A DNA stretch of 32,607 nt, taken from positions 1-32,607 of the forward strand of contig JAYVGK010000096.1 of NCBI GenBank assembly GCA_043772215.1. Direction: 5' to 3'. The stretch comes from Acidimicrobiales bacterium (GTDB lineage: Bacteria > Actinomycetota > Acidimicrobiia > Acidimicrobiales > JANYDT01). Below are positions 373 to 23,002 of the stretch, one piece after another. Each line of letters opens with the position of its first letter. Position 1 is the first letter of the stretch. Position numbers and translations under genes: made by a program. The notes beneath the pieces were generated by a model, which was given only the letters and a program-made list of their open reading frames with translations, made no database searches and was not told where the DNA came from.

Positions 373-3933
<3,561 letters not shown>

Positions 3934-3949
3934 ATCATCACAGTAAGTT

Positions 3950-5038
3950 TCAGCCTTTGGTCATGATGGGTGTTGATTTGAGGGTGGGAGTGCCCAAGGG
4001 TGTCCAACCTTTACCGTTCCAATAGGCCCCACTCACTGCAGGGGTACCGTCGGTTACCCGGACCTCGTAGCCCCGCACCAAGACCCGGCGATGTCCTTTG
4101 TCGTCTTGTTGATACTGAGCCTGTACGTATCCCGTACCTTCGTTGCTGGCCGCCTTCCATCCGCTATGTGCACTGACGGCCAGATCTCCAATTCCCGCCA
4201 CTGCCGACATTTGCCCCCCCGGTATCAGTGCTTGGTCTTGTTGCTCCGGTAGTGAGGCTCCTGACGGGGCGGCCCGTTTCACCGTTATGGGCAGGATGTA
4301 CGGCTGGCCGTTTGAGGCGACGCGCAGCATCCGTCCCAGTTCTGTGGCGCTCACCGACGCTCCATTCACCGGAGCCCAGCCGGCGGTGGCGGCAATGGCG
4401 CCGGCGCTGCGATACACGGCCGAATTCTTGGGTGTTACCAACGCCTCGCTGTACAGCACCGTGTGCCACGTTCGCCCAGTGTCGTCCATGGATCCCATTG
4501 CCATGTCGCCGCCGTCGCTCGGCATCCACTGAGTGGAATCTGCAGCCGAGCCGGCGACGCCCGGAACGATCACCGGATAGGTGCGGCCATCGGGGCCGAG
4601 AACAGATACGTCAGCGGTGTGGCCGTCATTGCACCCGCGTCCGTAGCCCGCAATGTCAAACGTCCCTGATCGCGCCGCGTCGAGGGCGTTGTATCCACGA
4701 ACCACGCCGGCGGGCCAATTGGGCCGGTTGATCGTCACCGGCCCCATCACCCGGGCCACCAATGCGGGCGGCAACGACGCCAAGGAGCCGCCGTCGGCCG
4801 CTTCGAACCAGCGGGCGACGTCACCCACCCAGCGGTCCAAATCCTGCGCTTGATCAGCCACCATGGGGATTCGACCGAGGGCGCGAATCTGCACAGTCCA
4901 ACCGTTGGGATGACATCCGCTGGCGTAGCGCGGGTAGGTGGCCTTGATGTCGTTCTGAGCCACTGAGAGGCGGCAGTCGAGTGCTAATTCCGACTGCGAG
5001 AACCTGGTGAGCTGCTCGGGTAATGCACTGACCTTCAC
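3950..5038 (-). CDS. hypothetical protein (362 aa), no signal peptide or TM, family not recognised
   Basis: Long ORF with coding-like composition. The GTG start forms a GTGA overlap with the stop of the upstream WXG-like gene (5035-5038). No catalytic motif recognised. Confidence 0.65.
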   Translation of the reverse strand: MKVSALPEQLTRFSQSELALDCRLSVAQNDIKATYPRYASGCHPNGWTVQIRALGRIPMVADQAQDLDRWVGDVARWFEAADGGSLASLPPALVARVMGPVTINRPNWPAGVVRGYNALDAARSGTFDIAGYGRGCNDGHTADVSVLGPDGRTYPVIVPGVAGSAADSTQWMPSDGGDMAMGSMDDTGRTWHTVLYSEALVTPKNSAVYRSAGAIAATAGWAPVNGASVSATELGRMLRVASNGQPYILPITVKRAAPSGASLPEQQDQALIPGGQMSAVAGIGDLAVSAHSGWKAASNEGTGYVQAQYQQDDKGHRRVLVRGYEVRVTDGTPAVSGAYWNGKGWTPLGTPTLKSTPIMTKG

Positions 5039-5478
5039 CGGACGCCGCCCACTGGCACTGGTGCGGCCTTCTCGGTGGCAGCTCGTCGGGCTGCTTGTTC
5101 GATGACCTGTCGAGCGGCCTCGTCGGCCATCCTCGCTTGCTCTTGTTCAATGGCCAGTTCGCGATGCCACTGCTCTCGCAATTCGATCCGCCGTCGCTGT
5201 TCGAATGACGCCATCGCCGAGGCCACCCGGGCGTCAGCGGCATCTTCACCCAGAGCCACCGCCTGCATCCGGGCGTAATCGTGCAACGTGTTGAGGCGCT
5301 TGTCGAAGCTCAGCCGGTGAGGACCTTCCCACCCGTGCACGGCGTGGCGGGCGGCGCCTTCGCGCTCGGCCACCCAGGTATGCAAGGTGTGGGCCCCTTG
5401 TTCGCACGCATACGCATAGGCGCCTGCGGCGGCATGATCGAATTCCACATCGGACCAATTGGGTTGCCAACCTGGCAT
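5035..5478 (-). CDS. WXG100-like helical-hairpin protein with C-terminal charged coiled-coil extension
   Basis: The ATG at 5478 is preceded by GAAGGAG with a 5-nt spacer. W50-E51-G52 lies between two predicted helices of about 45 aa each, followed by an E/R/Q/A-rich segment. An alternative in-frame ATG is at 5517. The track ORF start at 5643 would overlap the upstream BI-1 gene by 88 nt. Confidence 0.55.
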   Translation of the reverse strand: MPGWQPNWSDVEFDHAAAGAYAYACEQGAHTLHTWVAEREGAARHAVHGWEGPHRLSFDKRLNTLHDYARMQAVALGEDAADARVASAMASFEQRRRIELREQWHRELAIEQEQARMADEAARQVIEQAARRAATEKAAPVPVGGVR

Positions 5479-5555
5479 GCCATCTCCTTCACTGAATGTA
5501 GTGAAAGATAATGACATGCACCGAAAGGTGCTGTCCAGGGGAAGCGGTGGGGATG

Positions 5556-6263
5556 TCAGCGACGGCGTTGTGAGGCCAGTACCCGCAACACATGCAGATA
5601 GATCATCACCAAGCTCAACAACAGCGCAAAGGCGCCGAACCACTCATAGGAAGCCCCCGCTCGGCGCAGTTCGGCCTGCTTGACATATTCGAAGTCGGTG
5701 AAGAGGTTCATCAGGCCGATGCCCACCCCGATGACACCAAAAATCATGCCCCGCTGACCCACACCGTTGACACCTGGCACTTGCAACCCGAACATGGCCG
5801 CCACGTACACGGCGAACAGGCCCATGGTGGCCATGGCCGTAATGGCCATGAACTTGGGCGTGACCCGTACCACGTTGGTGCGATACAGGATGAGCGCACC
5901 TACGAAGAATCCGGCCGTGAGCACGATGGCAGTGGGCACGATGCCGCCGCCGAAGGTGGCGTAGTACGCCGAGATGGCACCCAGGAAGAACCCCTCCACC
6001 ACGGCATATATGGGCGCCAATACGCGGGCCCATCGAGGGCGGAACATGCATGCCACAGCGCATCCCAGGGTGATGACGAGGGCCGGGATGAACGACACCG
6101 GGGAGCCGAACGTGTACCCGAGGCCACCGGTGAGCAAGGTGATGCCCACCAACCAGGTGAGCTTGTCGTATGCCCCCTTGGCCGTGAACGGTGCCTCGGT
6201 ACTTGCATGGGGACCGCCGACGGTGATCTGGTCGACGGCTCTGATCATGGTGGAAGACGCCAT
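5556..6263 (-). CDS. Bax inhibitor-1/YccA-like family membrane protein (actinobacterial BaxI_1 type)
   Basis: About 7 TM helices. C-terminal GASYEWFGAFALLLSLVMIYLHVLRVL block is typical of the actinobacterial BI-1-like family. Confidence 0.8.
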   Translation of the reverse strand: MASSTMIRAVDQITVGGPHASTEAPFTAKGAYDKLTWLVGITLLTGGLGYTFGSPVSFIPALVITLGCAVACMFRPRWARVLAPIYAVVEGFFLGAISAYYATFGGGIVPTAIVLTAGFFVGALILYRTNVVRVTPKFMAITAMATMGLFAVYVAAMFGLQVPGVNGVGQRGMIFGVIGVGIGLMNLFTDFEYVKQAELRRAGASYEWFGAFALLLSLVMIYLHVLRVLASQRRR

Positions 6264-6294: not shown

Positions 6295-7662
6295 CTAGCC
6301 TTCGGCGCGGACCGTGCTGTGCTGGCTCTCAGCATCCTGTGCAGCTTTTGTTGCCGCATCGATGAGGGGATCGAAGCCAGCCGTACCCAGTGCCTTGACT
6401 CGGGGATCCTCCACATAGCGTTCGGTTTTGACCCAGCCAGAAGCGCCGCTGATCATGCGGGCCAGGGCCTTCCACCCGGCGACGTACCACACCAGTTGAT
6501 ACGCAGCCAAGGCGTGGGCAAGGAAGAATGCTTTTCGGCCGCTGACTTCATCGGTGCGATGTTTGTAGTGGAACGCCACGAATATGGAGGGCCCAAAGGT
6601 GAAGGCGTACCACATGGCCAAGGCCACGTAGAAGCGGCCATTGCCCAGCGAGGCACTGGTGTCACTGGTGAGCACTTTGACCAGCAACCACGCATGGGCG
6701 GTGATGACGGCGACCGGCCACACGATGCAGACGATGCCGGGAAACAGCAGGTAGTACAAGACGTCGAGGGTGGCCCGCATCTTCATTGGCGACGCCAGGA
6801 TCTCGGGGATTCGCTTCCAGCACTGAAACAAACCTTGCACCCATCGAGTGCGCTGACGCACCAAACGCCCCACGCTCTCGAGGCCCTGCTGGCCCACCGA
6901 AGTACTGGTACACACCCGTAGCTCCCAGCCCCGAGACAGCAGCTGCAGTCCGAGGTCCAGATCTTCCACTAGGCAATCCGACCAGGGTTGGCGGCCCAGT
7001 TCCATCAGCGCAGACAGCCGGGTGAATTGACCGTTACCTCCCAGGCCAGACGAACCAATGGTGTCGCGACCCTGCTGGACGAGTTCGGTGAACGAGGTGA
7101 ACTCGATGTCTTGGAGTCGGCCGATGAGTTTGGTCCGATTTCGGATACGTACCAGGATTTGGCAGGCCGCCACCTTTGGATCGAGAAACCACCGTTGAAC
7201 CTCGTCCATGGCACCGACTTCGATGACGCCGTCGGCGTCCATGACGCACACGATGACGTCCTCAGGCTCCAGTGACCGGTCCTCACACACGGAGACGAGC
7301 TTGTTGTAGCCGTAGTTGAGCGCCGCCCCTTTGCCGCGCCGGGCATCTGGAGTACGGCGCTGCACCAACATCACCCGGTCTGGATGTTCGGCTCGATGCT
7401 CGGCGGCGATGGCGGATGTGGCGTCGTCGCTGCCGTCGTCCACCACCATCACCAGCGAGCGGGGAACCTTGAGGAGCCGGTCCAGCGTGGCGCCGAGGAC
7501 ACGCTCCTCGTTGAGGCAAGGCACCACGAACACCGCGGTGAACCGCTCGGTGCTGCCCGAGGGCATGGAGCGCTTGCGGCGACCGGCCACGATGACCGTC
7601 AGGAGGTAACCGACTGACAGCAGCACCACCGTGTTGGCGATGGTGGTGACAACAGTGAGCAT
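6295..7662 (-). CDS. family 2 glycosyltransferase, processive membrane-embedded synthase type
   Basis: N-terminal TM helix. VVPCLNEE, VVDDGSDD, MDADG (DxD), GGNG, VEDLDLG and QRTRWVQG (QxxRW) motifs. C-terminal TM bundle. Confidence 0.85.
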   Translation of the reverse strand: MLTVVTTIANTVVLLSVGYLLTVIVAGRRKRSMPSGSTERFTAVFVVPCLNEERVLGATLDRLLKVPRSLVMVVDDGSDDATSAIAAEHRAEHPDRVMLVQRRTPDARRGKGAALNYGYNKLVSVCEDRSLEPEDVIVCVMDADGVIEVGAMDEVQRWFLDPKVAACQILVRIRNRTKLIGRLQDIEFTSFTELVQQGRDTIGSSGLGGNGQFTRLSALMELGRQPWSDCLVEDLDLGLQLLSRGWELRVCTSTSVGQQGLESVGRLVRQRTRWVQGLFQCWKRIPEILASPMKMRATLDVLYYLLFPGIVCIVWPVAVITAHAWLLVKVLTSDTSASLGNGRFYVALAMWYAFTFGPSIFVAFHYKHRTDEVSGRKAFFLAHALAAYQLVWYVAGWKALARMISGASGWVKTERYVEDPRVKALGTAGFDPLIDAATKAAQDAESQHSTVRAEG

Positions 7663-7698
7663 CGTAAAGTCAGTCGCCTTCAGTACCCGTCATGCCCG

Positions 7699-7911
7699 TC
7701 AGCGACCGACGGTGCGCCGGGCCACGAAGCGAGCCACCACCACGAGTAAGAAGAGCAGTGCCAGGATTGCAACGGTAACAACCACACTGGTGGCACCTCC
7801 GAACCCGTATCCAGAGAGGCCGGCTGCACCGGTCATCGAGGCCATTCGGAAGGCCGGAAGGCCGAGCGTGCGGGGTTCGTACATGGGTGGATGGACCTCG
7901 TGGACTGACAT
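7699..7911 (-). CDS. possible small single-pass membrane protein (70 aa)
   Basis: ATG ORF ending 36 nt upstream of the GT2 start on the same strand. One strong C-terminal TM helix (VVVTVAILALLFLLVVVARFVA) followed by RRTVGR. Third-position GC is high by hand count. No convincing Shine-Dalgarno. Confidence 0.4.
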   Translation of the reverse strand: MSVHEVHPPMYEPRTLGLPAFRMASMTGAAGLSGYGFGGATSVVVTVAILALLFLLVVVARFVARRTVGR

Positions 7912-8193
7912 GGCGTTCGGCGGGTGTGAACTTCCATCGTCAAACGGACTTCAGACGCCACGACGAGGAACAAGAGCACGTTAGTGCACTCGCAGGGGGA
8001 GTTGGCTGCGGGTGACCCAGCGCTGCGGGCCTCGGCGCACAGGCGGGAGAGAACTCATCAGCGCGCTGATCTTCCGCTAAGGTGAAAGGTCATTCATATC
8101 CACCGCTTGTGAGTCCGATCCGGGAGACCCGCTCTGTCCACTGATGATCCGTCCCGTAGTTTTGGGCGAGGGCGCCTGGCGGCGGGTCGTCGA

Positions 8194-10080
8194 TTGCTCT
8201 CCTCCCGGCGAGTGCGGCGCACTGACGCCAGCCTGTCGGCAAATGCCGCCATGGCGGCCTTGGCTGACCATTCGGCAAGTGGGAGCGCTGATGCGGCGTT
8301 GCTGCTCGACGGAGCACGGGTCGCTTTGGGAGCGTCGAGAGCAGAGCTCACCTTGATGGACGAGCAGGGAAGTCGCTGGACGAGCGGCGCAGGTAATGGC
8401 GTCCGAGCGGTGGAGTCGGTCATCGATTTGACGATCGACAACCCGCTGGTGGCGATAGGTGGGGAGTTGTGGGTTTCGGCTCTGCGCCGCCAACGCCCAA
8501 CCGTGGTGGACACCCCCGAAGGCCGTCTGGTGGTGGCCCCTCTGCTCCTGCACGGGTCCGTCACCGGCGTGCTGGCGGCGGTGTTCGACGAGGACCGCTC
8601 TGCTTCACGCAGCGACGATCTGAACGTGGCTCGTACCGTGGCCCAGTTGGTGGCCCTGTCGCTTGGATCGGCCACACTTTCGGCCCGGCTGCGCGCCGAG
8701 GTGATTTATCGCGATCACCACGCCACCCACGACACGCTCACCGGGCTGGCCAATCGTCTGGCCTTCGAGGCCGCCGTGGACGATGCTTTGGCTCATGTGG
8801 CGAGCTCGCTGGCCACCCCCCACCCCCGGGCCTGCGCGCTGCTCATCATCGACCTCAACCGGTTCAAAGAGATCAACACCTCCCTTGGTCATCAAATTGG
8901 TGATTCGGTGGTGGTGGAGGTCAGTCGCAGGATTGTGGACGCCCTACCGCCCGACTCGATGGTGGCGCGTTTCGGTGGCGATCAATTCGCAGTGTTGTTG
9001 CCTGACATTGGGGGGAGTGAGCCTGCGCTGGCTGTGGCGGAAACGATTCTCGACTCCGTCAGCGCAATTGTGGAGCTCGATACCATCGACGTACCGGTGG
9101 GAGCAGCCATTGGCGTGGCATTGGCTCCATTGCATGGCGGTACCCGGCACTTCCTCCTGCGTCGAGCCGACGTGGCCATGCACGCCGCCAAAGAGCAACG
9201 CCAGTCTGCAGTGCAGTTGTATGCCCCCGAGTATGAACAGGTGAGTACCCGACAACTGTCGTTGGTGGCCGATCTACGCAGGGCATTGGACGCCGACGAA
9301 CTCGAAGTTCACTATCAACCCAAGAGCACCATTGTCACCAACCAAGTGGTGGGCGTGGAGGCGTTGGTGCGTTGGCGGCACCGAGATCTGGGTCACATCG
9401 CTCCGGACGAGCTGATCCCCTTGGCCGAGCACACGGGTCTCATCACCGATCTCACCCGCTTCGTGTTACGCACCGCTCTCGAGCAGTGCGCCACATGGAA
9501 CCGCCAGGGCATGCCGCTGCATGTGGCGGTGAACCTGTCGGCGCAGGCGCTGTGTGATGAGGGCCTGCCGGCAGAAATTGCAGCTGCGCTGCAGCGCGCC
9601 GGGGTTGCCCCGCCATCGTTGACGTTGGAGATCACGGAAAGCCAATTCACGGTGGACTCTGCCGTGAGTCGTCGTGTCCTGTCAGGCCTGCGAAACCTCG
9701 GTGTCCGGTTGTCCATCGACGACTTCGGAACGGGCTACTCGGCCCTGGCTTATCTGGCTCGCCTCGATGTGGACGAGTTGAAGATCGACAAGTCATTCAT
9801 CCTCGCCATGGCTCACAGTGACGCCAACCTGGCCATCGTGCGGGCCGTGGTGGAAGTGGCCGACAGCCTCGGCCTAGCCACCGTGGCAGAGGGAGTGGAA
9901 GACCAGCAGTCCTGGGACCGTTTGAGTGTGTTGGGATGTACCACTGCGCAGGGGTATCACTTGAGTCGTCCCCTTCCCAGCGACTCGATGGGGATGTGGT
10001 TGTGGGAACGCAGGCGAAGCGGCACCCAAGGTGTTACTGGGACAGCGGCTGGCGTGGGACACTCGTCTCTTCGCCCATGA
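8194..10080 (+). CDS. GAF-like sensor / degenerate GGDEF (GGDQF) / EAL domain protein, probable c-di-GMP phosphodiesterase
   Basis: GLANRLAFE and RFGGDQFAVLL (8974-8988) mark the GGDEF fold. EALVRW (9358-), NLS, ITES, DDFGTGYS, ELKIDKSF, AEGVE and QGY are intact EAL motifs. TTG start at 8194; in-frame ATG at 8251 is an alternative. Confidence 0.9.
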   Translation: MLSSRRVRRTDASLSANAAMAALADHSASGSADAALLLDGARVALGASRAELTLMDEQGSRWTSGAGNGVRAVESVIDLTIDNPLVAIGGELWVSALRRQRPTVVDTPEGRLVVAPLLLHGSVTGVLAAVFDEDRSASRSDDLNVARTVAQLVALSLGSATLSARLRAEVIYRDHHATHDTLTGLANRLAFEAAVDDALAHVASSLATPHPRACALLIIDLNRFKEINTSLGHQIGDSVVVEVSRRIVDALPPDSMVARFGGDQFAVLLPDIGGSEPALAVAETILDSVSAIVELDTIDVPVGAAIGVALAPLHGGTRHFLLRRADVAMHAAKEQRQSAVQLYAPEYEQVSTRQLSLVADLRRALDADELEVHYQPKSTIVTNQVVGVEALVRWRHRDLGHIAPDELIPLAEHTGLITDLTRFVLRTALEQCATWNRQGMPLHVAVNLSAQALCDEGLPAEIAAALQRAGVAPPSLTLEITESQFTVDSAVSRRVLSGLRNLGVRLSIDDFGTGYSALAYLARLDVDELKIDKSFILAMAHSDANLAIVRAVVEVADSLGLATVAEGVEDQQSWDRLSVLGCTTAQGYHLSRPLPSDSMGMWLWERRRSGTQGVTGTAAGVGHSSLRP

Positions 10081-11498
10081 CCAGCACCGACCGCTCACCA
10101 ACCTCGCCCCAACTCGCTCCCGACCACTTCGATCCTACGACGGTCACTGAGTTTCGCTACCTGTCGCGACACCTCGACTTGGGAACGGGCGAAGCGGTGC
10201 TGCGATACGCGCTTGACGAGCTGGAGCTCACCGAGCGATTCACGTTCCCAGTGCCTCTGGGTGAGCTTCCGGCTGAGTTGATGCCCCGTCGGGTTGCGGT
10301 GGTGGAGCGGTTGTTGGATCACCTGTGGCTGGTGGCCGGGTTGAGTTACTTCAAGATGGCGGCCCCCCCCTTGATCCGCATCGAAGCTGGTCATTTCCAC
10401 CGCCTCGACATCGAGTTTCATCAACTGTTGTTGCGCCGGGGGCTGGGAGAGTTCTGCTTCGTCAACGGGCTCGATCCCGAACTCAGCCCCACCTACGAGT
10501 TCCATGAATTGGACGAGTCGCCAGCGCCCATCACCTCGTTGTCGTTGGACTTGGGCCCGCTGGTTCCGGTGGGGGGCGGCAAAGACAGTTGCGTCTCCAT
10601 CGAGGGGCTGAGGGCCGCAGGATTTGAGCCCACGTTGGTCACCGTGCGCCGATTCCCGATCATCGCTGATGTCATCGAAGCTTCGGGACTACCCGACTTG
10701 TCCGTGGAACGTGTTCTGGACCCAATGGTGGCTCAGTTGAACGCACGGGGGGCCCTCAATGGGCATGTGCCAGCCACCGCCATCGTGTCGTTTGCAGCTC
10801 TCATCGTGGCTGCGTGGCATGGCTTCGACGCAGTGGTGATGTCCAACGAGCGTTCGGCGTCGGAAGGCAACACGCTTTACCGCGGGGTGGAAATCAACCA
10901 TCAGTGGTCCAAGAGTGACGAAGCCGAGTCGGCCATCAGGGCAACTGTGGCCCGGATCAGTCCAGAGTTGGGATGGTTCTCAATCCTGCGACCCCTGTCG
11001 GAGCTGCACATCTCTCAGCTGTTCGCCCGCCACTGCAGTCGCTACTTCACCACGTTCTCCAGCTGCAACCGTTCGCAGGTCATGGACTCCCGCCAGCGGG
11101 TGGCGCGCTGGTGTCGACGGTGCCCCAAATGCCAGTTCGTATATCTGGCGTTGGCGGCATCAATGCCACGATTGCAGCTTGAGGTCATCTTTGCTGAGGA
11201 CTTGTTTTCCACGTCGGCGATAGATGGGTTTCGTTCGTTGCTGGGCCTGTCGAGCTGGAAACCGTTCGAATGCGTGGGGGAGACTGGTGAGTGTCGGGTG
11301 GCGCTGTCGATACTCAACGACTCCGTCGAGTGGGCCAAACATCCGTTATTGGGTCAGTTGATTCACGAGGTCCGCGCCGCAGGTCTGTGGCCCACCGCTA
11401 CGGAGGTGGCCGAGGTGTATTGCGCACACTCTTTCTCCAGCGTGCCGCAGAACTATGTGCCCATAGTGGATTCGTTCGGTGTCGATGCGCCTGGCTGA
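10077..11498 (+). CDS. murL: MurL-like protein (UDP-MurNAc-L-Ala-L-Glu epimerase family), PP-loop ATPase fold
   Basis: ATG at 10077 forms an ATGA overlap with the EAL gene stop. PVGGGKDS PP-loop-like motif (10566-10589). NGHVPA block. WCRRCPKCQFVYLA Cys cluster. Sits immediately upstream of and overlapping a MurD-like ligase, the arrangement described for murL-murD2. Assignment is from memory of the family, not a search. Confidence 0.65.
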   Translation: MTSTDRSPTSPQLAPDHFDPTTVTEFRYLSRHLDLGTGEAVLRYALDELELTERFTFPVPLGELPAELMPRRVAVVERLLDHLWLVAGLSYFKMAAPPLIRIEAGHFHRLDIEFHQLLLRRGLGEFCFVNGLDPELSPTYEFHELDESPAPITSLSLDLGPLVPVGGGKDSCVSIEGLRAAGFEPTLVTVRRFPIIADVIEASGLPDLSVERVLDPMVAQLNARGALNGHVPATAIVSFAALIVAAWHGFDAVVMSNERSASEGNTLYRGVEINHQWSKSDEAESAIRATVARISPELGWFSILRPLSELHISQLFARHCSRYFTTFSSCNRSQVMDSRQRVARWCRRCPKCQFVYLALAASMPRLQLEVIFAEDLFSTSAIDGFRSLLGLSSWKPFECVGETGECRVALSILNDSVEWAKHPLLGQLIHEVRAAGLWPTATEVAEVYCAHSFSSVPQNYVPIVDSFGVDAPG

Positions 11499-12897
11499 TC
11501 TGGCTGGCCGCCGAATCGTGGTGTGGGGGGCGGGCGCAGAGGGTGCGGCGGCGCTGCGGTTACTGCAGCACTGGGCGCCTCCCCGATCGCTGTATGTGGT
11601 GGTGGACGAAGGCGGTACCACCGCCCCCACTCGACTCGAAGGGGTGGAGGTGCTCACCGCTGGTGGCGCCGATGTTCAATCGGTGTTGGAGAACACCGAG
11701 GTGGTGCTGAAGTCGCCCGGCGTATCTCCCTACCACGGCGCTCTGCATCAGTTGCTGGAGCAGCACCGCCACATCGTATGTACAGGGGGTACTCAGGTGT
11801 GGTTCGCAGAGGCCGCCGCCCACGGGGCACTGGCGCGCACCGTGGCTGTCACGGGCAGTAAAGGCAAGAGCACCACCAGTTCGCTCATTGCCGCTTTGCT
11901 GCAGGGGTGTGGACGTCAGGTGGTGCTGGCCGGAAACGTGGGCCGCGCCCCCCTCGATGTGCTGGCCGCCGGGTTGGAGGCGGGCCAAGCCTTTCCGGCC
12001 GGGCAATGGCATGTATTGGAATTGTCGAGCTTTCAGGCCGCTGAGGTCCAGCACTCTCCGTTAATAGGTGTGCTTACGGCCTTGTTTCCCGAGCACTTGG
12101 ATTGGCACCTCACCGTGCAGCGCTACTACGCAGACAAGCTCAACCTGTTTCGCCATGGCGTGGGTGTGTCGGTGGCCAACCTGGCCAACGCCGATGTGGC
12201 CCGGTTGGCAACGGAGCTCTACAACCTGCAGGGCTACAACATCGAAAGCGCTGTTCATCCAAAGAATGGCTGCATCGTGGACGGTGACGGCGTAGTGGTG
12301 GTTGACGTCGGGGTATCGCCACTGCTCGGTCTACACAACTTTCAAAATTTGTGCGGTGCCCTCACCGCGGTCGCCGCAGCAGGTATCGACCTGAAACAAG
12401 CGGCCACCCGGGATGCCATCGCCACTGCGTTGGCGAAGTTCCAACCGTTGACCCACCGCCTAGAACCGGTAGGGACAGTGGGTGGTCGTTTGGTGGTCGA
12501 CGATGGCCTGTCCACGGCCCCGGAGGCGGCCATGGCGGCCTTGGCCACCTACGCCGACACGCCGGTGGGGATCATCGTGGGAGGTCACGACCGGGGACTG
12601 GATTATCACCGTCTGGCACTGGCAGTGTCCCAACGAACGGAGTCCACCTGGGTGGTGGGAGTTCCCCAGAGCGGTGAGCGAATCGTGGCCGCCATTGGCG
12701 ATGCGTGCACAAAAGTGGCCAACGCCAACGTGCATACGTCGTTCGTGTCGGACTTCGACGAGGCGGTAGGCGCTCTCGATGCTTTGGTACCCGAGGGCGG
12801 GGTCATCCTGCTCTCGCCGGCCGCGCCCTCCTTCGGTCGCTTCCGAAATTATCAAGAACGCAGCGCCCGCTTTCGCGAGTTGCTGGGCTTGCGCTGA
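11479..12897 (+). CDS. murD2: MurD-family UDP-N-acetylmuramoyl-L-alanine--glutamate ligase, probably the L-Glu-adding MurD2 type
   Basis: VAVTGSKGKSTTSS P-loop, ELSSFQ, FPEHLDWH and HRLE motifs of Mur ligases. N-terminal Rossmann-like VVWGAGAEG as in MurD. GTG at 11479 or ATG at 11485 overlaps the murL end. The MurD2 versus MurD call rests only on pairing with murL. Confidence 0.8.
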   Translation: MSMRLADLAGRRIVVWGAGAEGAAALRLLQHWAPPRSLYVVVDEGGTTAPTRLEGVEVLTAGGADVQSVLENTEVVLKSPGVSPYHGALHQLLEQHRHIVCTGGTQVWFAEAAAHGALARTVAVTGSKGKSTTSSLIAALLQGCGRQVVLAGNVGRAPLDVLAAGLEAGQAFPAGQWHVLELSSFQAAEVQHSPLIGVLTALFPEHLDWHLTVQRYYADKLNLFRHGVGVSVANLANADVARLATELYNLQGYNIESAVHPKNGCIVDGDGVVVVDVGVSPLLGLHNFQNLCGALTAVAAAGIDLKQAATRDAIATALAKFQPLTHRLEPVGTVGGRLVVDDGLSTAPEAAMAALATYADTPVGIIVGGHDRGLDYHRLALAVSQRTESTWVVGVPQSGERIVAAIGDACTKVANANVHTSFVSDFDEAVGALDALVPEGGVILLSPAAPSFGRFRNYQERSARFRELLGLR

Positions 12898-15800
12898 TGG
12901 CCAGCCAAGTTTCTGCTGGATGGCTGCGTCTCCTCGGACGAGTGATACGGCCGCACCGCCGTCACGCGTTGGTGTCGTTCACGGCGGCAGCGCTGGCAGT
13001 GGTTGCCACGCTGGCCACGCCACTGGTGATTGCCCGTGTTCTTGATCGGAGGGGCAACCTCCGCACCAACATCGCAATACTGGCTGTACTGGCAGTCATA
13101 CGCGCGCTGATGATCTATCTGCGGCGCTGGTATGCCGGGGTGATGTCGGCCAGTGTGGAGTCCGACCTGCGGCGCATGGTTCATGACCACCTGCAGACGC
13201 TTGATCCCCTCACCCATGACTCGTTGGCTCAAGGACAGGTGGTGTCGAGAGCCAACACCGATGTCAGCACCATTGGCGGCCTGCTGTCGTTTGCGCCGTT
13301 GCTGTCGTCGAACTTCGTACAGTTGGTTTTGTCGTTTGTGGTGATGGCCAGTCTGTCGATACCACTCACCGGCATTGCCGTGGTGATGCTGCCGGTGCTG
13401 TACGTGATTGGCGCACAACTGCGGAAATGGTCGTTCCCGGCCAACCTCGACGCGCAAGCTCAGGTGGGGGTGCTCACCACCATTGCCGAGGAGGCCATCA
13501 GCGGGGTCCGGGTGGTGAAGGGTTTTGGACAGGAAGGGCGCGAGGTGGCGCGTATGGAGGTGGCGGCTCGGCGGCTGCTCGGTAGTCGCGGTCGCGCCAT
13601 TCGAGTCAATGCCCGTTGGTCGCCGCTGCTACAAGGCGTTCCCGTGGTGGGACTGGTGGCGGTGTTGGCAGCGGGTGGACAACTGGTGGTGGACGGAAAC
13701 ATCACGGTGGGCACCCTCGTAGCGTTCGTCACGTATCTCGGCCAGCTTGGTGGTCCCATCCGCCTCGCTGGTGCCGTCATCACCATTTCCCAGCAGGCCC
13801 GCGCTGGCATCGAGCGCATCTTTGAATTGCTGGATGTGGCACCACGTATCACCGACGCCCCCGACGCTGACGTGTTGCCACCGGGCCCGGGCACCGTTCA
13901 ACTGAGTCACGTATCGGTGGTGTACCCGGGTGGCGGTACTGCTCTTGACGACGTGTCGCTGCGCATCGAAGCGGGAGAGCGGGTGGCGCTGGTGGGTACC
14001 AGTGGTTCCGGTAAGTCCACGCTGGCGTTGTTGCTGCCCCGGTTCGTGGAGGCGCAGGGCGGCAGTGTGCGGGTGGACGGCCGAGACGTTCGTGAGGTCA
14101 CACTCACCTCGCTGCGAGAGCGTATCGGGATGGTGTTCGAAGATGCATTTCTGTTCTCCTCGTCACTGCGTAACAACATTGCCTATGGGCAACCGGAATC
14201 CACCGATCTGCAGGTCCGTCGAGCGGCGCAGCAGGCTCAAGCCACCTCGTTCATCGAGGCCCTTCCGGAAGGTTTCGACACCGTGGTGGGGGAGCAGGGA
14301 TTGACCTTGTCGGGTGGGCAACGCCAACGGATCAGTATTGCCCGGGCGTTGCTGCGCCAACCCCAGATCCTGCTGCTCGATGACGCCACCTCGGCCCTGG
14401 ACTCCCAAACCGAGCACGAGGTGCATGAGGCACTGCGGGAGCTTATGCAGGGCCGCACGGTGTTACTCGTGGCCCATCGTCGATCCACCATCAACCTGGC
14501 CACGCGAGTGGTGGTGCTGGAGCACGGACGGATCATCGATGACGGCACCCACGATGAACTCATGGCCCGGTGTCGTACCTATCGTGTGTTGGTGGCGGGC
14601 GACGACGACGCCATGTCCGCGTCCGACGCTCCCCGAGCCTTACGCGTAACCGATACGCAACCGGTGCTCGACGTCCCGACGCTTGGCGCGCTGGTCGTGG
14701 GGGTAACGCGCCCAAGCGGTGGTTCGGGTGGTCCCGGTGCAGCGCGTGGGGCGGGTTTGGGGACGGGTGGCTTTGTGGCTGACACACCCGAAAATGTGGC
14801 CCGGATCAGTTCGCTTCCACCGCCGCGTGACCACCCGGCAGTTTCGGCCGAGGTAGCGGTGGCCAGTGCGGTCAGCGACTCTGATCAGTTCTCTTTACGA
14901 CGGTTCGTGCGACCCGAGATGGTTCCGCTGCTGCTGGGCTTGGGGCTGGTGGGAGTAGATACCGCTCTGCTGTTGGCCGGGCCACTGTTCGTACGCCATG
15001 GGCTCGATGCCGGCGTGGCCAAGCGCAACCTTGGCGCGCTGCGGGCGGCGTCGTTGGCGTACTTGGCGGTGGCCCTGGCCGATCTGGTGGTGTCGAGGGC
15101 TCAGACGATCCTGGTGGGCGTGGCCGGCGAGCGCGTGCTGTACCGGTTGCGCCTGCGGGTGTTTGGGCAGATGCAACGGCTATCGCTCGATTATTACGAG
15201 AAGGAAATGAGTGGTCGCCTCCTGACGCGTATCACCAGTGACGTAGACGCCTTGTCCAACCTGTTGCAGCAAGGAGTACTGAATTTGGTGGTGAATGCGC
15301 TCACCTTGGTGGGTGTAGCGGTGGTGTTGTTGCGCACCGATTGGCGCTTGGGGCTGGTGGCCATGTCGTGCTTTCCGTTGCTGGGCGTGGCCACGGTGTG
15401 GTTTCGGCGCAATTCTGAGCGGGCTTATGCCGTATCGCGCGAGCGCTTGGCAGGCGTGAATGCCAACCTGGCCGAGTCGTTGTCAGGAGTACGGGTGGTG
15501 CAGGCTTTTGGTCGGGAGCAACGAAACACCGAAGACTTCGCCGCCATGGTGCAACGACACCGACTGGCGCGCCTGGCCGGCCAACGGGCCACTTCGATTT
15601 ACTTCCCGCTGGTGGAATTGTGTGGCGTGGGATCCACTGCCGCCGTGCTGTGGGTGGGCACCCACCGGGTGTCGTCGGGGGTGATCACCACCGGAGCGCT
15701 GGCGGCATTCGTGCTGTATCTCAATCAGTTCTTTGCCCCGGTACAGCAACTGTCCACCGTGTTTGATGTGTGGCAACAGGCGGGAGCAGCCACTACCAAG

Positions 15801-16610
15801 TTGCGCGAGTTGTTGGCGGAGCAAACTGGCACGCCAGCAGCCGAGCACCCAATACAGCCGCCCGCCGACCAGCGTGCCGTTGGTCATATCCAAGCCACCA
15901 ATGTGCGCTTTGCCTACCGCCGTGGGGGCACCGAAGCCCTACGTGGAGTGGACCTCGAGATTGCCCCTGGGGAGACGGTGGCGTTGGTGGGGGAGACGGG
16001 CGCGGGCAAATCGACCCTCATGAAGCTCATCGCCCGCTACTACGACCCCACCTACGGCAGTGTGCGGTCCGGCGGCTTTGATTTGCGGACCCTCGATCTC
16101 GGTGGCTATCGACACCGGCTCGGCGTGGTTCCGCAAGAGCCGGTGTTGTTCACCGGCACCATCGCCCAGAACATTGCCTATGGCCAGCCCGACGCTTCGA
16201 TAGAGCGGATCCGCGCCGCCGCCGAAGCGGTAGGCGCTGACGAGATGATCAACGAGTTGCCTGATGCTTACGACACGGCCGTGGCTGCCCGAGGAAGGAC
16301 CCTGTCGTCGGGACAACGCCAGCTCATTGCGCTGGCACGCGCCCATCTCGTGGATCCGGCCGTCTTGCTTCTCGATGAGGCCACGTCCCAGTTGGATCTG
16401 GCCACCGAGGCCAAGGTGCAGGCAGCCATGGGCCTGTTGTCGCAGGGGCGTACCACGGTGCTCATTGCCCACCGCCTCGACACCGCTCGCAAGGCCGATC
16501 GTCTGGTGGTGATGGCCGACGGTCAGATCGTGGAAGTCGGGACCCACGACGCCCTGCTGGCGGAAAAGGGGCAGTACGCCAGGATGTGGGCGGCCGGAGC
16601 GCAACCGTAG
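12897..16610 (+). CDS. fused (TMD-NBD)x2 ABC exporter, 1237 aa, with one degenerate nucleotide-binding site
   Basis: ATG at 12897 overlaps the murD2 stop (TGATG). Half 1: GTSGSGKST, LSGGQRQR, LLLDDATSALD. Half 2: GETGAGKST, LSSGQRQL, LLLDEATSQLD. Two six-helix type I exporter TMDs are joined by a Gly/Ala/Ser-rich linker. Confidence 0.9.
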   Translation: MASQVSAGWLRLLGRVIRPHRRHALVSFTAAALAVVATLATPLVIARVLDRRGNLRTNIAILAVLAVIRALMIYLRRWYAGVMSASVESDLRRMVHDHLQTLDPLTHDSLAQGQVVSRANTDVSTIGGLLSFAPLLSSNFVQLVLSFVVMASLSIPLTGIAVVMLPVLYVIGAQLRKWSFPANLDAQAQVGVLTTIAEEAISGVRVVKGFGQEGREVARMEVAARRLLGSRGRAIRVNARWSPLLQGVPVVGLVAVLAAGGQLVVDGNITVGTLVAFVTYLGQLGGPIRLAGAVITISQQARAGIERIFELLDVAPRITDAPDADVLPPGPGTVQLSHVSVVYPGGGTALDDVSLRIEAGERVALVGTSGSGKSTLALLLPRFVEAQGGSVRVDGRDVREVTLTSLRERIGMVFEDAFLFSSSLRNNIAYGQPESTDLQVRRAAQQAQATSFIEALPEGFDTVVGEQGLTLSGGQRQRISIARALLRQPQILLLDDATSALDSQTEHEVHEALRELMQGRTVLLVAHRRSTINLATRVVVLEHGRIIDDGTHDELMARCRTYRVLVAGDDDAMSASDAPRALRVTDTQPVLDVPTLGALVVGVTRPSGGSGGPGAARGAGLGTGGFVADTPENVARISSLPPPRDHPAVSAEVAVASAVSDSDQFSLRRFVRPEMVPLLLGLGLVGVDTALLLAGPLFVRHGLDAGVAKRNLGALRAASLAYLAVALADLVVSRAQTILVGVAGERVLYRLRLRVFGQMQRLSLDYYEKEMSGRLLTRITSDVDALSNLLQQGVLNLVVNALTLVGVAVVLLRTDWRLGLVAMSCFPLLGVATVWFRRNSERAYAVSRERLAGVNANLAESLSGVRVVQAFGREQRNTEDFAAMVQRHRLARLAGQRATSIYFPLVELCGVGSTAAVLWVGTHRVSSGVITTGALAAFVLYLNQFFAPVQQLSTVFDVWQQAGAATTKLRELLAEQTGTPAAEHPIQPPADQRAVGHIQATNVRFAYRRGGTEALRGVDLEIAPGETVALVGETGAGKSTLMKLIARYYDPTYGSVRSGGFDLRTLDLGGYRHRLGVVPQEPVLFTGTIAQNIAYGQPDASIERIRAAAEAVGADEMINELPDAYDTAVAARGRTLSSGQRQLIALARAHLVDPAVLLLDEATSQLDLATEAKVQAAMGLLSQGRTTVLIAHRLDTARKADRLVVMADGQIVEVGTHDALLAEKGQYARMWAAGAQP

Positions 16611-16644: not shown

Positions 16645-18918
16645 TTAGCGGTGCGTGACTTCTTGTACGGATGAAGTGGGACCGGGGATGCTGGACGACC
16701 ACACGATGGTGCCCGCTGCGGTGCGACAGGTTGCGGTCGCTGGCGCCAAGCCCACATTGGTGGAAATCACCACGACTTTCCCGGACCGCATTCGACGCGC
16801 CACTGTGCCTGTAGTGCAGCGATATTGGAATGCCGGGGCTGACGTGGTCCAGAGATTCCTCCACCACGTGACCATGGCTGATGTGGTGGAGGGCTCCGGG
16901 TCCGGTCCTGCCAGCGGGCCCCGCCCAGCCACAGCGGCGTCGCTATCGAGCAGGTTTGACCAACGCGTCTGGCATCCCCCATTCGAGTCGCACCACGTCC
17001 AGCGCCTACGAGCCGACTCCAGCGTGGCGTCATCGAAGTAACGGCTCAAGCTCATGGGACCGAGGGGTAGCAGGCGAATACCCAGAGCCGATTCAGGGGC
17101 CGGATCGAACCAGGTTCCGTTGTCGGTTTTTGCTGACCAGACGACACCAGACCACGGTCGCATCTTGGGATCAGACTGGGGTTGGTTTGGCAACCAATCG
17201 GTGGCCATCACGTGGGATTCGATGGTGAGCATGGCGATGAATCGTTCGGCCAATTGCGGTCGACCGGTGGCTAGATACCATCGTGCCGCAGCCCATAGCG
17301 CGAAGTTGCTTTCGCTGCTCGACTCCAAGTTGTTGCCATCTGCAAATTGGGCAATGCCGGAGGCCCACGTATGTCCGTCATAGGGATTCCAGGTGCCGTA
17401 TCGATCGAGTTGGGTGCCGGCTCGGCCGGTCCCACCGTAGTCGTTGACCAACAAGTCAATGGTGGCTGAGAGCCATGAGGAGGACGATGGGTCGTGCTCC
17501 ACGATGATCGATGCAGCGGCCACCCAATACCCGTACTGGAGTTGATGATCGTTGAGTTCGGTGAGGGAGCCGAATTCTGCTGGCTCGATGACGGCCTTAC
17601 CCCACGCTGGTTCCCATCGGAGATTCGGCGGTTCTATCGGATCAATCAGTGCACGCAGAATGTCCTCGGCGCGCTTACGGTATTCATCAGCGCTGGCCGT
17701 GTCACTGGTCAGCAGACTTCCCATGGCTGCTTGGGCCACGCTCTTTCCGCCAAAGTACGAACCACGCGAAATTGTTTCGAGGGGCTCTGGCGGCGGGAGC
17801 GCTTCAGTGAACGCAGCCGCCTTTCCTGAATTGTCGAGAGCGACGGGGCGCCACAGGATGGGTACCGGCGCGTAACGCAAGGTGAGCGCCGCCCGCTCCA
17901 GGATCGGCACCACGCCATTGACCGTGGAGAGATGCCCAACCATCGATGTGTCGACAGCGGGTGTGACCGTGTCGAGTTGATGAGGTCCGAGCGTCCAGAG
18001 ATACGTGGCGGCGCGACGCGTGCGGAGTTGGGTCAGCACCTGCTCCACCGATCCGTCTTTGGCCATGCGCAGTGTCTCCGTGGTGTCGACAATGCGATTG
18101 GTGACGAGGCTCACCGCATGTTTGCGGTAGTTCTGACCAGCGTCGATTGGAACTGGCCCGGCTACAAGGCGGCCACCGGTGGCGGGCCAACTGAACGCCA
18201 TGGATGTGCCGTCTACCGCAACCCTGGTTCCGGGCGTTGCCGCGAACACCCATCGGCCCCGAGAGGTGGCAATCACGATCCCTGTTTCGAGGGCTCGTAG
18301 AACAGAAAACGCGTTTCGATCGCCGGGCCCTTTTGGTCCCGCAGGGACGGTCAAGTAGAGGGTGGCGTTTCCCTCGAACTCCAAGAAGGGAGAACCTTGA
18401 ACCATCGACAGTGAGGTTGCACCAGTTGGTGAGTCGTATCGCCAGGTGGCGTGAAACGCGCCCGCCGAGGTGACCACAGGAGGTGTAGTGAACGCCGCAG
18501 TGACCACCGGGCTGGTATCAGCGTTCCACGTACCATCGGGGAGGTTGTTCCGCGTTGGTACTGAAAATTCGGTGGTGCCGGTGGGAGCCACCCGTGCCGC
18601 CAGCGGTAGCGGGAACACTCCTGCTGAACCCTGGCCCACCGACAGCGCCGACCACCAAGTATTGGTTCGTATGCCTGCCGTGGAACCACCCCAACCTACT
18701 GGGGCTACCGGTCGATCGACCGATGGGGGCTCGAGCGCAATCCCATCCACGATCGGCGGTACCGACCGATCGGGACTGGGCGACGGTGCTGGCGTGGTGG
18801 TGGCCCAAGCAAAACGCTGCGTTGTTCTCGGTTTCGATGACAGCATCCAAACGCCGATCCCAGCACCCCCGGCCAGAAGCATGGTGGCGAGCCCAGCCGT
18901 ACAGACCTTACCAATCAT
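16645..18918 (-). CDS. glycoside hydrolase family 81 endo-beta-1,3-glucanase, N-terminally membrane-anchored or secreted
   Basis: N-terminal hydrophobic segment GLATMLLAGGAGIGVWML. LNDHQLQYGYWVAAAS matches the GH81 NDHHFHYGY block. DGNNLESSSESNFALWAAARWY matches the GH81 catalytic E-S-S-S-E block. Confidence 0.8.
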   Translation of the reverse strand: MIGKVCTAGLATMLLAGGAGIGVWMLSSKPRTTQRFAWATTTPAPSPSPDRSVPPIVDGIALEPPSVDRPVAPVGWGGSTAGIRTNTWWSALSVGQGSAGVFPLPLAARVAPTGTTEFSVPTRNNLPDGTWNADTSPVVTAAFTTPPVVTSAGAFHATWRYDSPTGATSLSMVQGSPFLEFEGNATLYLTVPAGPKGPGDRNAFSVLRALETGIVIATSRGRWVFAATPGTRVAVDGTSMAFSWPATGGRLVAGPVPIDAGQNYRKHAVSLVTNRIVDTTETLRMAKDGSVEQVLTQLRTRRAATYLWTLGPHQLDTVTPAVDTSMVGHLSTVNGVVPILERAALTLRYAPVPILWRPVALDNSGKAAAFTEALPPPEPLETISRGSYFGGKSVAQAAMGSLLTSDTASADEYRKRAEDILRALIDPIEPPNLRWEPAWGKAVIEPAEFGSLTELNDHQLQYGYWVAAASIIVEHDPSSSSWLSATIDLLVNDYGGTGRAGTQLDRYGTWNPYDGHTWASGIAQFADGNNLESSSESNFALWAAARWYLATGRPQLAERFIAMLTIESHVMATDWLPNQPQSDPKMRPWSGVVWSAKTDNGTWFDPAPESALGIRLLPLGPMSLSRYFDDATLESARRRWTWCDSNGGCQTRWSNLLDSDAAVAGRGPLAGPDPEPSTTSAMVTWWRNLWTTSAPAFQYRCTTGTVARRMRSGKVVVISTNVGLAPATATCRTAAGTIVWSSSIPGPTSSVQEVTHR

Positions 18919-18921
18919 GAC

Positions 18922-19992
18922 TTAACGCGGTTGGCTGGTGGAAACTGGCGAACTGGGTGCCACTGATGTGACCGCTCCGGTAAATCCGGTGCCCGTCCTG
19001 AGATTTGTCTGTCCCTTGGGTGCCTCCACAGTGAAGACCAATTTAGGCGCATCTTTGGGCACTGACTTCAGGTCGATCCTGGCATCAAAGCGAACGCCAG
19101 GCACTAATTCCGACATCCGTTCTTCGTCTGGTTTGATTCGAATATTGACCAGCTTGGCCGTGGTGGGACTGTGGTCGGTCCCCAAGAGCGGGACCGCTGA
19201 AATCACTGTTCCGGCGATCGGTTTTGACAACACGTCTGAAATCAGAGTGGCCCGCATCCCTCGCCGCAGAAGAATGAGGGTTGCCGGTTGCACAGTGACG
19301 ATGACGTACATGCGGCGCGGGTCATACACGGTGGCCACAGGGTTACCTGGATAGGCCACACCGCCCTCGAGTTGATCCACCGACGCAAATCGGGCGTCGA
19401 ACGGGACGGAAAGAATGGTCGACTCGTTAGAGAGGCCGTCGCGGCTGTATCCCTCTACTCGTGCAATGGGTGTTCCAGCTGGAAGATCGGAGTCGGGAAG
19501 CACTGATGCGTCGACAAACAGTTCTTTGATCACGGCGGGACGGGTGGGGGCAACCTGGACACCTTGTGCTGATAAAACACCGTCGCGCAACAAAACGGTG
19601 TTGATCGTGGTCAGTCGAAAATGGACTTGGGGCAAAATGATCCACGCCAGGAGGGCCATGATGCAAGCACTGGCCGCCAACGACATCACACGCGACACCA
19701 GCGCGTTGCCTGGGCGTGCCACCGGAGCGAAGGGCTTTTCGCTGGGATCGATCCAGGTGCGTTGCAACCGCGATGTCGGTTGTGCTCGGCGGTGCCCGCC
19801 GTACTCTGTGTAGTCGTCGAGCTCGAAGCGGTCGTCGAGTCTTGTGTACCTAGAGTTGCCGGGTGGTTCAATACTTGAGCGCCGTCGTTCAGGCGGGGCG
19901 GTTGGCTTGGTTGGTGACGCTGAATCTCTTTCAGTGAGCCGACGACCCTCTCTGAGAAGATCGGCTAGAGCGTCGTCAAGCTGCATTGTCAT
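18922..19992 (-). CDS. single-pass membrane protein with HlyD/membrane-fusion-protein-like beta-barrel ectodomain (no long coiled-coil hairpin)
   Basis: About 110-aa charged, low-complexity cytoplasmic N-terminus, then one TM helix (VMSLAASACIMALLAWIIL). Lipoyl-like and beta-barrel-like segments follow (AGTPIARVE, YVIVTVQP, LRRGMRATLISD, VNIRIKP). Overlaps the GT2 stop by 17 nt and ends 3 nt before the GH81 start. Confidence 0.5.
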   Translation of the reverse strand: MTMQLDDALADLLREGRRLTERDSASPTKPTAPPERRRSSIEPPGNSRYTRLDDRFELDDYTEYGGHRRAQPTSRLQRTWIDPSEKPFAPVARPGNALVSRVMSLAASACIMALLAWIILPQVHFRLTTINTVLLRDGVLSAQGVQVAPTRPAVIKELFVDASVLPDSDLPAGTPIARVEGYSRDGLSNESTILSVPFDARFASVDQLEGGVAYPGNPVATVYDPRRMYVIVTVQPATLILLRRGMRATLISDVLSKPIAGTVISAVPLLGTDHSPTTAKLVNIRIKPDEERMSELVPGVRFDARIDLKSVPKDAPKLVFTVEAPKGQTNLRTGTGFTGAVTSVAPSSPVSTSQPR

Positions 19993-22381: not shown

Positions 22382-23002
22382 ATGCCGCTTCCACCAACGA
22401 TCACGAGGGTTGAGCGAACCTTCGGATTTCTCGACATCAGTCGCTTCACTGCCTACACGGACCAGCGCGGCGACGCCATGGCCGTGGGGGCGCTGGCTGA
22501 TTTTCGTATGGTGGTGCGGGATGTGTGCAGCCGTTACGGCGTGCGGGTGGACAAGTGGCTGGGCGACGGGGCCATGTTCGTATGTGTGGAAACCGCGCCC
22601 CTAGTGCAGGCCGTGCTGGGTATCGAGCAACGCTTGTCGGAGATCGGGTTTCCCCTGCCGTTGCGCGCCGGAATTGCGTCAGGGCTGGTGATCCTGTTCG
22701 ACGGTGATGACTACATCGGTATGCCGGTGAACCTGGCCAGTCGGTTGTGTGCGGAGGCGTCGCCGGGCGAGGTGCTGGTGACCGATGTGGTGGCCCAGTC
22801 GGCCCCCGAGTGGGCCCGGAGCCGTTGGATGGGCGACTTGGACGTACGCGGGGTGGCGGCGCCAGTGGCGGTGGTGGCTCTGTCGAGTGTGTCCGAGCCG
22901 GTGAGGCCTGATCCAGAGACGCCCGATTCAGAGACGCCGCTGGCCACCCCTTCGATGACCCCTTCGATGACCCCTTCGATGACCCGGAGACCAATTTCCT
23001 AG
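22382..23002 (+). CDS. stand-alone class III adenylate/guanylate cyclase catalytic domain protein with C-terminal Pro/Ser/Thr repeat tail
   Basis: ERTFGFLDISRFTAYT (metal Asp), KWLGDGAMFV, LRAGIASGLV, GMPVNLASRLCAEASPGEVLVT match the CHD fold. No sensor or TM domain. The TAG stop overlaps the pepN stop in a shared CTAG (22999-23002). Confidence 0.75.
   Translation: MPLPPTITRVERTFGFLDISRFTAYTDQRGDAMAVGALADFRMVVRDVCSRYGVRVDKWLGDGAMFVCVETAPLVQAVLGIEQRLSEIGFPLPLRAGIASGLVILFDGDDYIGMPVNLASRLCAEASPGEVLVTDVVAQSAPEWARSRWMGDLDVRGVAAPVAVVALSSVSEPVRPDPETPDSETPLATPSMTPSMTPSMTRRPIS
22946..22985 (+). repeat. perfect 12-nt tandem repeat ACCCCTTCGATG x3 (+4 nt) encoding (TPSM)3 in the cyclase tail
   Basis: Direct reading: three identical 12-nt units at 22946-22981 plus a partial fourth. 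Preceded by a duplicated CAGAGACGCC (PETPDSETP). Confidence 0.9.

Follow-up and report, generated by a model that had tools for sequence, protein, structure and literature searches.

The 32,607-nt stretch of Acidimicrobiales DNA considered here (contig JAYVGK010000096.1 of assembly GCA_043772215.1; hereafter the window) carries four genes on the + strand that, as judged from the open reading frame (ORF) map and the junction sequences, follow one another with zero intergenic space and encode a GGDEF-EAL protein, a MurL-like protein, a MurD-like ligase and an ATP-binding cassette (ABC) exporter. The first gene of the chain (8194..10080) specifies GGDQF and EAL domains preceded by a weak GAF match, and is followed by the MurL-like gene (10077..11498; 473 aa), the MurD-like ligase gene (11485..12897) and, at the end of the chain, the gene for a fused ABC exporter of 1237 aa (12897..16610). 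The ATG of murL at 10077 overlaps the EAL gene stop codon (TGA, 10078-10080) to form an ATGA, and the ligase stop codon (TGA, 12895-12897) and the ABC gene start codon (ATG, 12897-12899) have an A in common. The ligase gene overlaps murL by 14 nt if it begins at ATG 11485 or by 20 nt if it begins at GTG 11479; the former start is favoured because the overlap is likewise 14 nt in L082, a relative with 85% identity (compared loci are cited by L numbers, 80 of them being genome-collection loci found with MurL). The murL and murD2 genes, overlapping by 14 nt, are probably translationally coupled. An earlier note, made from the letters of the window and its ORFs, had described the ATGA and TGATG chaining of the two central genes to the EAL and exporter genes, the 14-20 nt overlap, the GGGKDS and WCRRCPKCQF motifs of the 473-aa protein and the GSKGKST, ELSSFQ and HLDWH motifs of the ligase, and each of these was found in place. 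Such junctions and motifs are fixed properties of genes and not signals of a statistical kind, so chance is not an issue for them. A scan of positions 7400-17200 for promoter and terminator consensus sequences returned the same counts as shuffled sequence, and neither an Rfam family nor a tRNA was detected in the window, with no riboswitch upstream of the operon. The G+C content is uniform across the window region (0.62-0.65), with no sign of recent acquisition.

By sequence, the 473-aa protein is homologous to MurL over its full length. Its residues 18-461 match positions 2-440 of the 447 in the NCBIfam MurL model NF041275 (E 1.3e-109, 367 bits; HMM search), so that the similarity to MurL on which the earlier note had made its proposal depend is present. 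Precomputed annotations assign Pfam families PF26299 (MurL_N) and PF26298 (MurL_epimerase_C) to P0001, a protein identical to the 473-aa protein; run locally, Pfam-A gave no family for the 473-aa protein. The MurL family comprises 7,555 homologous clusters at E <= 1e-10, and among the 120 best matches listed, most of those from the Joint Genome Institute (JGI) carry the name ‘UDP-N-acetyl-alpha-D-muramoyl-L-alanyl-L-glutamate epimerase’. Sequence identity of the window MurL is 38-42% to MurL of Xanthomonadales, 41-46% to that of Micromonospora/Actinoplanes, 50-60% to that of Acidimicrobiales/Acidimicrobiia metagenome-assembled genome (MAG) loci and 67-85% to that of the closest metagenome contigs. 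In an alignment of 23 MurL homologues (A1), the PP-loop-like GGGKDS motif (G166-S171; 10572..10589, + strand) is invariant, as are C330 (11064..11066, + strand) and, within the WCRRCPKCQF cluster located downstream of it (aa 345-354; 11109..11138, + strand), C349 and C352; the remaining cysteine of this cluster, C346, is at least 90% conserved.

A PDB sequence search with MurL yielded zero matches at E <= 1. An AlphaFold2 model of the protein (predicted local distance difference test score 91.8, predicted template-modelling score 0.92) has as its top PDB fold matches the QueC structures 2pg3 and 3bl5, with target-normalised template-modelling scores of 0.56-0.70, followed by TtuA, Cap9, MnmA and argininosuccinate synthase, all of which are PP-loop adenylating enzymes that release AMP. 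The likeness to QueC covers the central and C-terminal part of the model, and GGGKDS falls inside the QueC-like PP-loop domain. QueC binds Zn through a Cys cluster. The PP-loop nature of MurL is thus supported at the level of the predicted fold, with its probable chemistry taken from the published biochemistry of the Xanthomonas oryzae enzyme. MurL uses one ATP and yields AMP, and adenylation of the Glu alpha-carboxylate has been proposed (PMC8788868); a QueC-like PP-loop fold fits the ATP use, the AMP release and the proposed adenylation.

The ligase possesses Mur_ligase_M (E 1e-15) and Mur_ligase_C (E 1e-8) Pfam domains, and the GSKGKST P-loop (aa 124-130; 11854..11874), ELSSFQ (12019..12036) and PEHLDWH (12088..12108) motifs can be read in its + strand translation. 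In X. oryzae MurD2, E197, R358, P433 and F435 replace D182, K348, A414 and L416 of Escherichia coli MurD; E197 and R358 set the specificity for L-Glu, the E197D/R358K double mutant being D-Glu specific, and a K319T substitution lets E. coli MurD take L-Glu (PMC8788868). These positions were read from an alignment of E. coli MurD with the window ligase and 77 MurL-adjacent ligases from the fetched loci (n = 78), using the literature numbering of E. coli MurD, which is the gene numbering minus one (Met1 omitted). The canonical comparison set consisted of four solved MurDs, those of E. coli, Pseudomonas aeruginosa, Thermotoga maritima and Streptococcus agalactiae, whose residues are given below in this order. 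The site of E. coli D182 and X. oryzae E197 is occupied in the window by Glu203 (12091..12093, + strand), with Glu in 76 of the 78 ligases (D, D, D and T in the solved MurDs), and that of E. coli K348 and X. oryzae R358 by Arg370 (12592..12594, + strand), with Arg in all 78 (K, K, K and R). Pro448-Ser-Phe450 (12826..12834, + strand) aligns with E. coli A414-S415-L416 and with X. oryzae P433 and F435; Pro is found at the first of these sites in 76/78 (A in every solved MurD) and Phe or Tyr at the last in 77/78 (L, L, F and W). The residue equivalent to E. coli K319 is L342, the site being Leu or Ile in 78/78 and Lys in all four solved MurDs. The window ligase therefore has the complete MurD2 residue pattern, which as a whole occurs in none of the four solved canonical MurDs. 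Equivalents of the P-loop, His183 and Lys198 are conserved in 78/78 of the MurL-adjacent ligases, and the JGI name of close homologues is ‘UDP-N-acetylmuramoyl-L-alanine---L-glutamate ligase’. A tblastn search of the window with E. coli MurD gave no match at 1e-8, and phmmer relates the ligase to the solved MurDs at E 1e-21 to 1e-31; the window ligase appears simply to be divergent from them, hence the tblastn miss. With this residue pattern, the full-length MurL homology and the conserved adjacency of the two genes, the MurL/MurD2 identity proposed in the earlier note seems well founded.

Two other ligases in the alignment, encoded in L014 (11337-12683) and L064 (11404-12750), have Asp at the E197 site and keep Arg at the R358 site, and their Glu stereospecificity may be intermediate or relaxed.

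The MurL and ligase genes adjoin in nearly all 80 genome loci, and the order EAL, MurL, MurD2, ABC, on whose conservation the earlier note had staked its proposal, recurs in 12 other independent loci and in part in the truncated locus L003. The loci with the full order are L001, L002, L004, L005, L006, L082 (with L083 and L084), L085 (with L086), L087, L088, L089, L172 and L173. In most of them the junctions are overlaps of 1-26 nt or gaps of <= 13 nt. These loci constitute a single clade in a neighbour-joining tree of MurL, with 48-85% MurL identity, and the outgroups L008 (Acidimicrobiales, 45%) and L171 (45%), then L090 (42%), are without the EAL and ABC genes. Such neighbours are likewise absent from the MurL loci examined of Micromonosporaceae, Solirubrobacterales, Xanthomonadales and Alphaproteobacteria; the earlier note had regarded the cyclic di-GMP (c-di-GMP) phosphodiesterase and the exporter as no part of the described system. 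The module is retained despite a change of the upstream flank from glmS and GT2 to rpsP, rimM, trmD and PMI in L087-L089, and of the downstream flank in L089. Counterparts of GlmS (71%), PepN (56-58%) and PfkB (58-60%) occur in the same order in named Acidimicrobiia MAG loci, and the best matches together with this synteny point to an actinobacterium of the class Acidimicrobiia as the source of the window.

The earlier note had further remarked that the pair lies where it does rather than in the division and cell wall (dcw) cluster, and this holds for the window, in which 13 dcw proteins of E. coli had no tblastn matches; as a departure from the norm it does not hold, since with the same 13 queries 77/80 loci, those of Xanthomonadales and Micromonospora included, show no dcw gene at a distance of up to 10 kb from MurL. 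Location outside dcw is therefore the rule for murL-murD2 and not a peculiarity of the window. Dcw genes accompany MurL in L007, L014 and L028, and in L007 (a Rugosimonospora MAG, 2763-7700) and L014 (an uncultured Actinomycetota MAG, 8886-14135) the order is mraY, murL, murD2, ftsW. The pair thereby fills the murD slot, a position that argues for MurD2 as the housekeeping ligase of genomes arranged in this way.

The protein encoded upstream of MurL matches EAL (E 6e-75) and GGDEF (E 2.5e-33) in Pfam. Of the GAF-GGDQF-EAL architecture set out in the earlier note, the GGDQF and EAL parts are borne out by both Pfam and motifs; the N-terminal GAF match is weak in the window protein (E 2e-4, under the Pfam cut-offs) and clear in the longer EAL orthologues of L087-L089 and L173. 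The GGDEF domain fold is present, with GGDQF (8974..8988, + strand) in place of the intact motif, Gln replacing the catalytic Glu, so the cyclase half is probably inactive. The EAL catalytic motif set read in the translation is complete (EAL, N, ExxE as EITE, DDFGTG, K, EGVE and QG; EALVRW at 9358..9375 and DDFGTGYS at 9718..9741, + strand), so that the protein probably has c-di-GMP phosphodiesterase activity, with the GAF region in a sensory role. Its gene may start ~50 codons downstream of TTG 8194, the L082 orthologue being 576 aa long.

The product of 12897-16610 contains ABC_membrane and ABC_tran twice in one chain, an arrangement of alternating transmembrane domains and nucleotide-binding domains (TMD-NBD-TMD-NBD), and its best solved ABC matches are BSEP, ABCB4 and ABCB1, then Sav1866, TmrAB-like exporters and BmrA. 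It is a putative full-length ABCB-like exporter without a substrate-diagnostic feature. The Walker B motif of NBD1 is LLLDD, in which the catalytic Glu is absent, and the signature of NBD2 is LSSGQ, so that the exporter is asymmetric: of its two ATP sites one is degenerate and the other consensus, as in heterodimeric exporters such as TM287/288. Identification of the protein as CydDC or MsbA was rejected, because the NCBIfam cut-offs of CydD, CydC and MsbA_rel were passed only by summing its two halves.

A stand-alone class III nucleotidyl-cyclase-like protein of 206 aa (22382..23002, + strand; PF00211, 24.1 bits, E 3e-5) is encoded further downstream. Its metal-binding Asp residues (FLDISRFT, GDGAMF) and VNLASRL motif are intact, and its orthologues (175-206 aa, 63-78% identical) make it the best-conserved protein of the neighbourhood. 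The gene usually stands directly after the ABC gene (L001, L002, L006, L085-L089, L172 and L173, inverted in the last). The C-terminal tail of the window protein carries a PSMTPSMTPSMT repeat that is absent in the orthologues. A metagenome scan with this protein (A2) returned 80 loci, all <= 65% identical and none with MurL, MurD2 or EAL, from which it follows only that members of the cyclase-like family occur widely in other settings, the scan being silent on the ancestral state of the module. In two unrelated metagenome contigs (L122, 4021-6029; L135, 9-1884), ~50%-identical cyclase-like homologues are preceded by two ABC ATPase-like genes, which hints at a recurrent, MurL-independent association of ABC ATPase and cyclase-like genes.

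In the window, the ABC and cyclase-like genes are separated by a three-gene block on the - strand (16645..21781) encoding a GH81 glucanase (757 aa), an HlyD-like protein (356 aa) and a cellulose-synthase-like GT2 protein (601 aa). With a G+C content of 0.54-0.59 against 0.62-0.65, and being present in L082 and absent from L001, L002 and L085, this block looks like an inserted beta-glucan synthesis/turnover cassette that splits the cyclase-like gene from the ABC gene. Upstream of the operon are glmS (373..2205), genes for a GalE-like NAD-dependent epimerase (2159..3274) and a DUF1361 protein (3217..3933) and, on the - strand, two ORFs without a family (3950..5643), a Bax-inhibitor-like gene (5556..6263) and a GT2 glycosyltransferase gene (6295..7662). 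The gene order of this envelope-sugar neighbourhood (373-7662) is shared with L082 and, in part, with L001 and L002. In L173 (1697-4786), genes for an MMPL transporter and a YkuD (L,D-transpeptidase) protein, further cell-envelope genes, stand between glmS and the module. L082 contains at 12850-13491 an Rv2466c-like gene for a 213-aa protein with a DsbA fold, belonging to a mycothiol-dependent reductase family; the window is without this gene.

In X. oryzae, according to what Feng and colleagues are said to have published in 2017, MurD2 joins UDP-MurNAc-L-Ala with L-Glu and MurL epimerises the terminal Glu. It is likely that the window genes are the murL-murD2 pair of this known racemase-independent D-Glu route, set in an operon specific to Acidimicrobiia and most economically explained as a housekeeping pair co-transcribed with envelope and signalling genes. 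By such a route the MurD2 ligase, having Glu, Arg, Pro and Phe in its pocket where canonical MurD has Asp, Lys, Ala and Leu, would act first and MurL second, turning the terminal L-Glu into D-Glu in one direction with consumption of ATP and release of AMP. The Glu alpha-carboxylate would be adenylated in the QueC-like PP-loop domain, which contains GGGKDS and bears the conserved four-Cys cluster. The EAL-murL-murD2-ABC order probably arose once, within an Acidimicrobiia subclade, and was retained afterwards, the precursor pair presumably sharing a transcript with genes for envelope and signalling functions in a part of the chromosome (glmS ... PepN, PfkB) that rearranges slowly. Co-expression of the four genes is plausible.

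Several observations weigh against this reading in one or other of its parts. The NF041275 score of 367 bits falls under the equivalog cut-off of 700 bits, the scope of that model being restricted to Xanthomonadales. At 261 bits, the ligase also exceeds the cut-off (212) of TIGR01087, the generic murD equivalog, and automated annotation could thus label it an ordinary MurD. As for the operon, the nearer relatives also share the order of a wider block (glmS, GT2, PepN and PfkB), so that general synteny accounts for part of the linkage of the four genes. The Rv2466c-like gene of L082 (85% MurL identity) separates murD2 from the ABC gene, an opposite-strand thioesterase gene in L172 separates the EAL gene from murL, and the cyclase-like gene of the window is 5.8 kb from the ABC gene. 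That the ligase is an ordinary D-Glu-specific MurD beside a 473-aa protein of some other function is nevertheless very improbable: TIGR01087, which would speak for it, evidently does not separate L-Glu from D-Glu ligases, and although S. agalactiae MurD likewise has Arg at the K348 site, all five diagnostic positions of the window ligase are as in MurD2 and no solved canonical MurD matches them, its kinship to the solved MurDs is only distant, and its neighbour is a full-length MurL homologue. The pair might instead be an accessory copy that serves another purpose or particular conditions in a cell also equipped with canonical MurI and a dcw MurD, given that the window is only 32.6 kb of the genome and that the pair is grouped with signalling and export genes rather than with cell-division genes. 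However, the published lineages carry the pathway in genomes without D-Glu-forming genes (PMC8788868), the L007 and L014 pairs occupy the murD slot from mraY to ftsW, as a housekeeping ligase would, and the uniform G+C content gives no sign of recent acquisition, so that an accessory role seems distinctly unlikely.

The gene order could alternatively reflect a functional unit, in which the phosphodiesterase, with or without the cyclase-like protein, tunes MurL/MurD2, or in which the ABC protein exports a MurL/MurD2-derived product or some other envelope precursor. The four genes have remained contiguous and co-directional over 48-85% MurL identity while both flanks vary, most junctions have a stop codon overlapping the next start codon, the cyclase-like gene is a fifth conserved neighbour, and in the vicinity are glycosyltransferase genes and glmS, whose product opens the route to UDP-GlcNAc. 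Set against this, no known MurL/MurD2 system outside the clade has such neighbours, be it in Micromonosporaceae, Solirubrobacterales, Xanthomonadales or Alphaproteobacteria; UDP-MurNAc-dipeptide, as an intermediate of the cytoplasm, is not known to need exporting; the ABC protein is of a generic ABCB type; insertions are tolerated inside the module, as in L082 and L172; and no c-di-GMP-binding motif or riboswitch was found in the window, where Rfam gave 0 matches. A functional unit of this kind is unlikely, and a real functional link behind the operon beyond co-transcription is improbable to a similar degree. Its most elaborate form, a dedicated five-gene Acidimicrobiia module (GAF-GGDEF-EAL, MurL, MurD2, asymmetric ABC exporter and minimal class III cyclase) that places the D-Glu step under cyclic-nucleotide control or feeds an exported D-Glu-containing MurNAc-peptide, is quite doubtful; if true, it would represent a regulatory or transport link new to any Mur pathway. 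A housekeeping murL-murD2 pair co-transcribed with its neighbours remains the preferred explanation.

The pathway itself is already known and its proteins are already recognised by public annotation pipelines; what is new, measured against the published distribution, is the hosts, Acidimicrobiia and Solirubrobacterales, and the clade-specific operon. The published distribution of MurL/MurD2 comprises Xanthomonadales, a few Alphaproteobacteria and Micromonosporaceae (PMC8788868), and is extended here to Acidimicrobiia and to Solirubrobacterales (Thermoleophilia), abundant and mainly uncultured actinobacteria of soil and water. Thermoleophilia MAGs commonly encode MurL with a MurD2-type ligase after it (Solirubrobacterales and Thermoleophilaceae, within L009-L074, e.g. 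L012, L021 and L035). The real distribution matters because narrow-spectrum antibiotics directed at the pathway have been proposed, and it matters for annotation too, since the generic murD model still accepts MurD2-type ligases. The conserved operon, which joins the pair to genes for an ABC exporter and a c-di-GMP phosphodiesterase and is at present only an observation of gene order, offers a handle on the regulation of the pathway.

Among known systems, that of X. oryzae (MurL, XOO_1319; MurD2, XOO_1320; reviewed in PMC8788868) resembles the window in having the same two protein families encoded by adjacent, co-directional genes in the order murL then murD2, and the window proteins share with it the equivalents of MurD2 E197, R358, P433 and F435 and the GGGKDS motif and Cys cluster of MurL. 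In the Xanthomonadales loci L027, L066, L070, L071 and L080 the pair is likewise located outside the dcw cluster. Identity between the window proteins and those of the Xanthomonadales loci is about 38-42% for MurL and 34-36% for MurD2, the window host is a Gram-positive Acidimicrobiia bacterium, and the GGDEF-EAL and ABC exporter genes that flank and overlap the pair in the window are absent from the Xanthomonadales loci. The Micromonospora/Salinispora system, for which MurL/MurD2 function has been confirmed in vitro (PMC8788868), belongs to the same phylum, Actinomycetota, and has the same families and signature residues, with identities to the window of 41-44% (MurL) and ~40% (MurD2). The Micromonosporaceae genes differ in being divergent, murD2 lying ~120 bp upstream of murL and on the other strand, and in being without an EAL or ABC neighbour.

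QueC and other PP-loop ATP pyrophosphatases resemble MurL in the fold of its central and C-terminal part, in an SGGxDS-like loop and Cys cluster and, as would be expected from the chemistry attributed to MurL, in AMP-forming activation of a carboxylate. Sequence similarity between QueC and MurL is undetectable, MurL has an additional ~150-aa N-terminal domain, and the reaction leads to nitrile formation in QueC whereas it is an epimerisation in MurL. With the canonical MurI and MurD route the system has in common the three-domain Mur ligase architecture of MurD2. It differs in the residues of the Glu pocket, in genetic context, that of the dcw cluster not being found in the window, and in the order of the reactions, as the MurD2/MurL route ligates first and then epimerises on the nucleotide-peptide.

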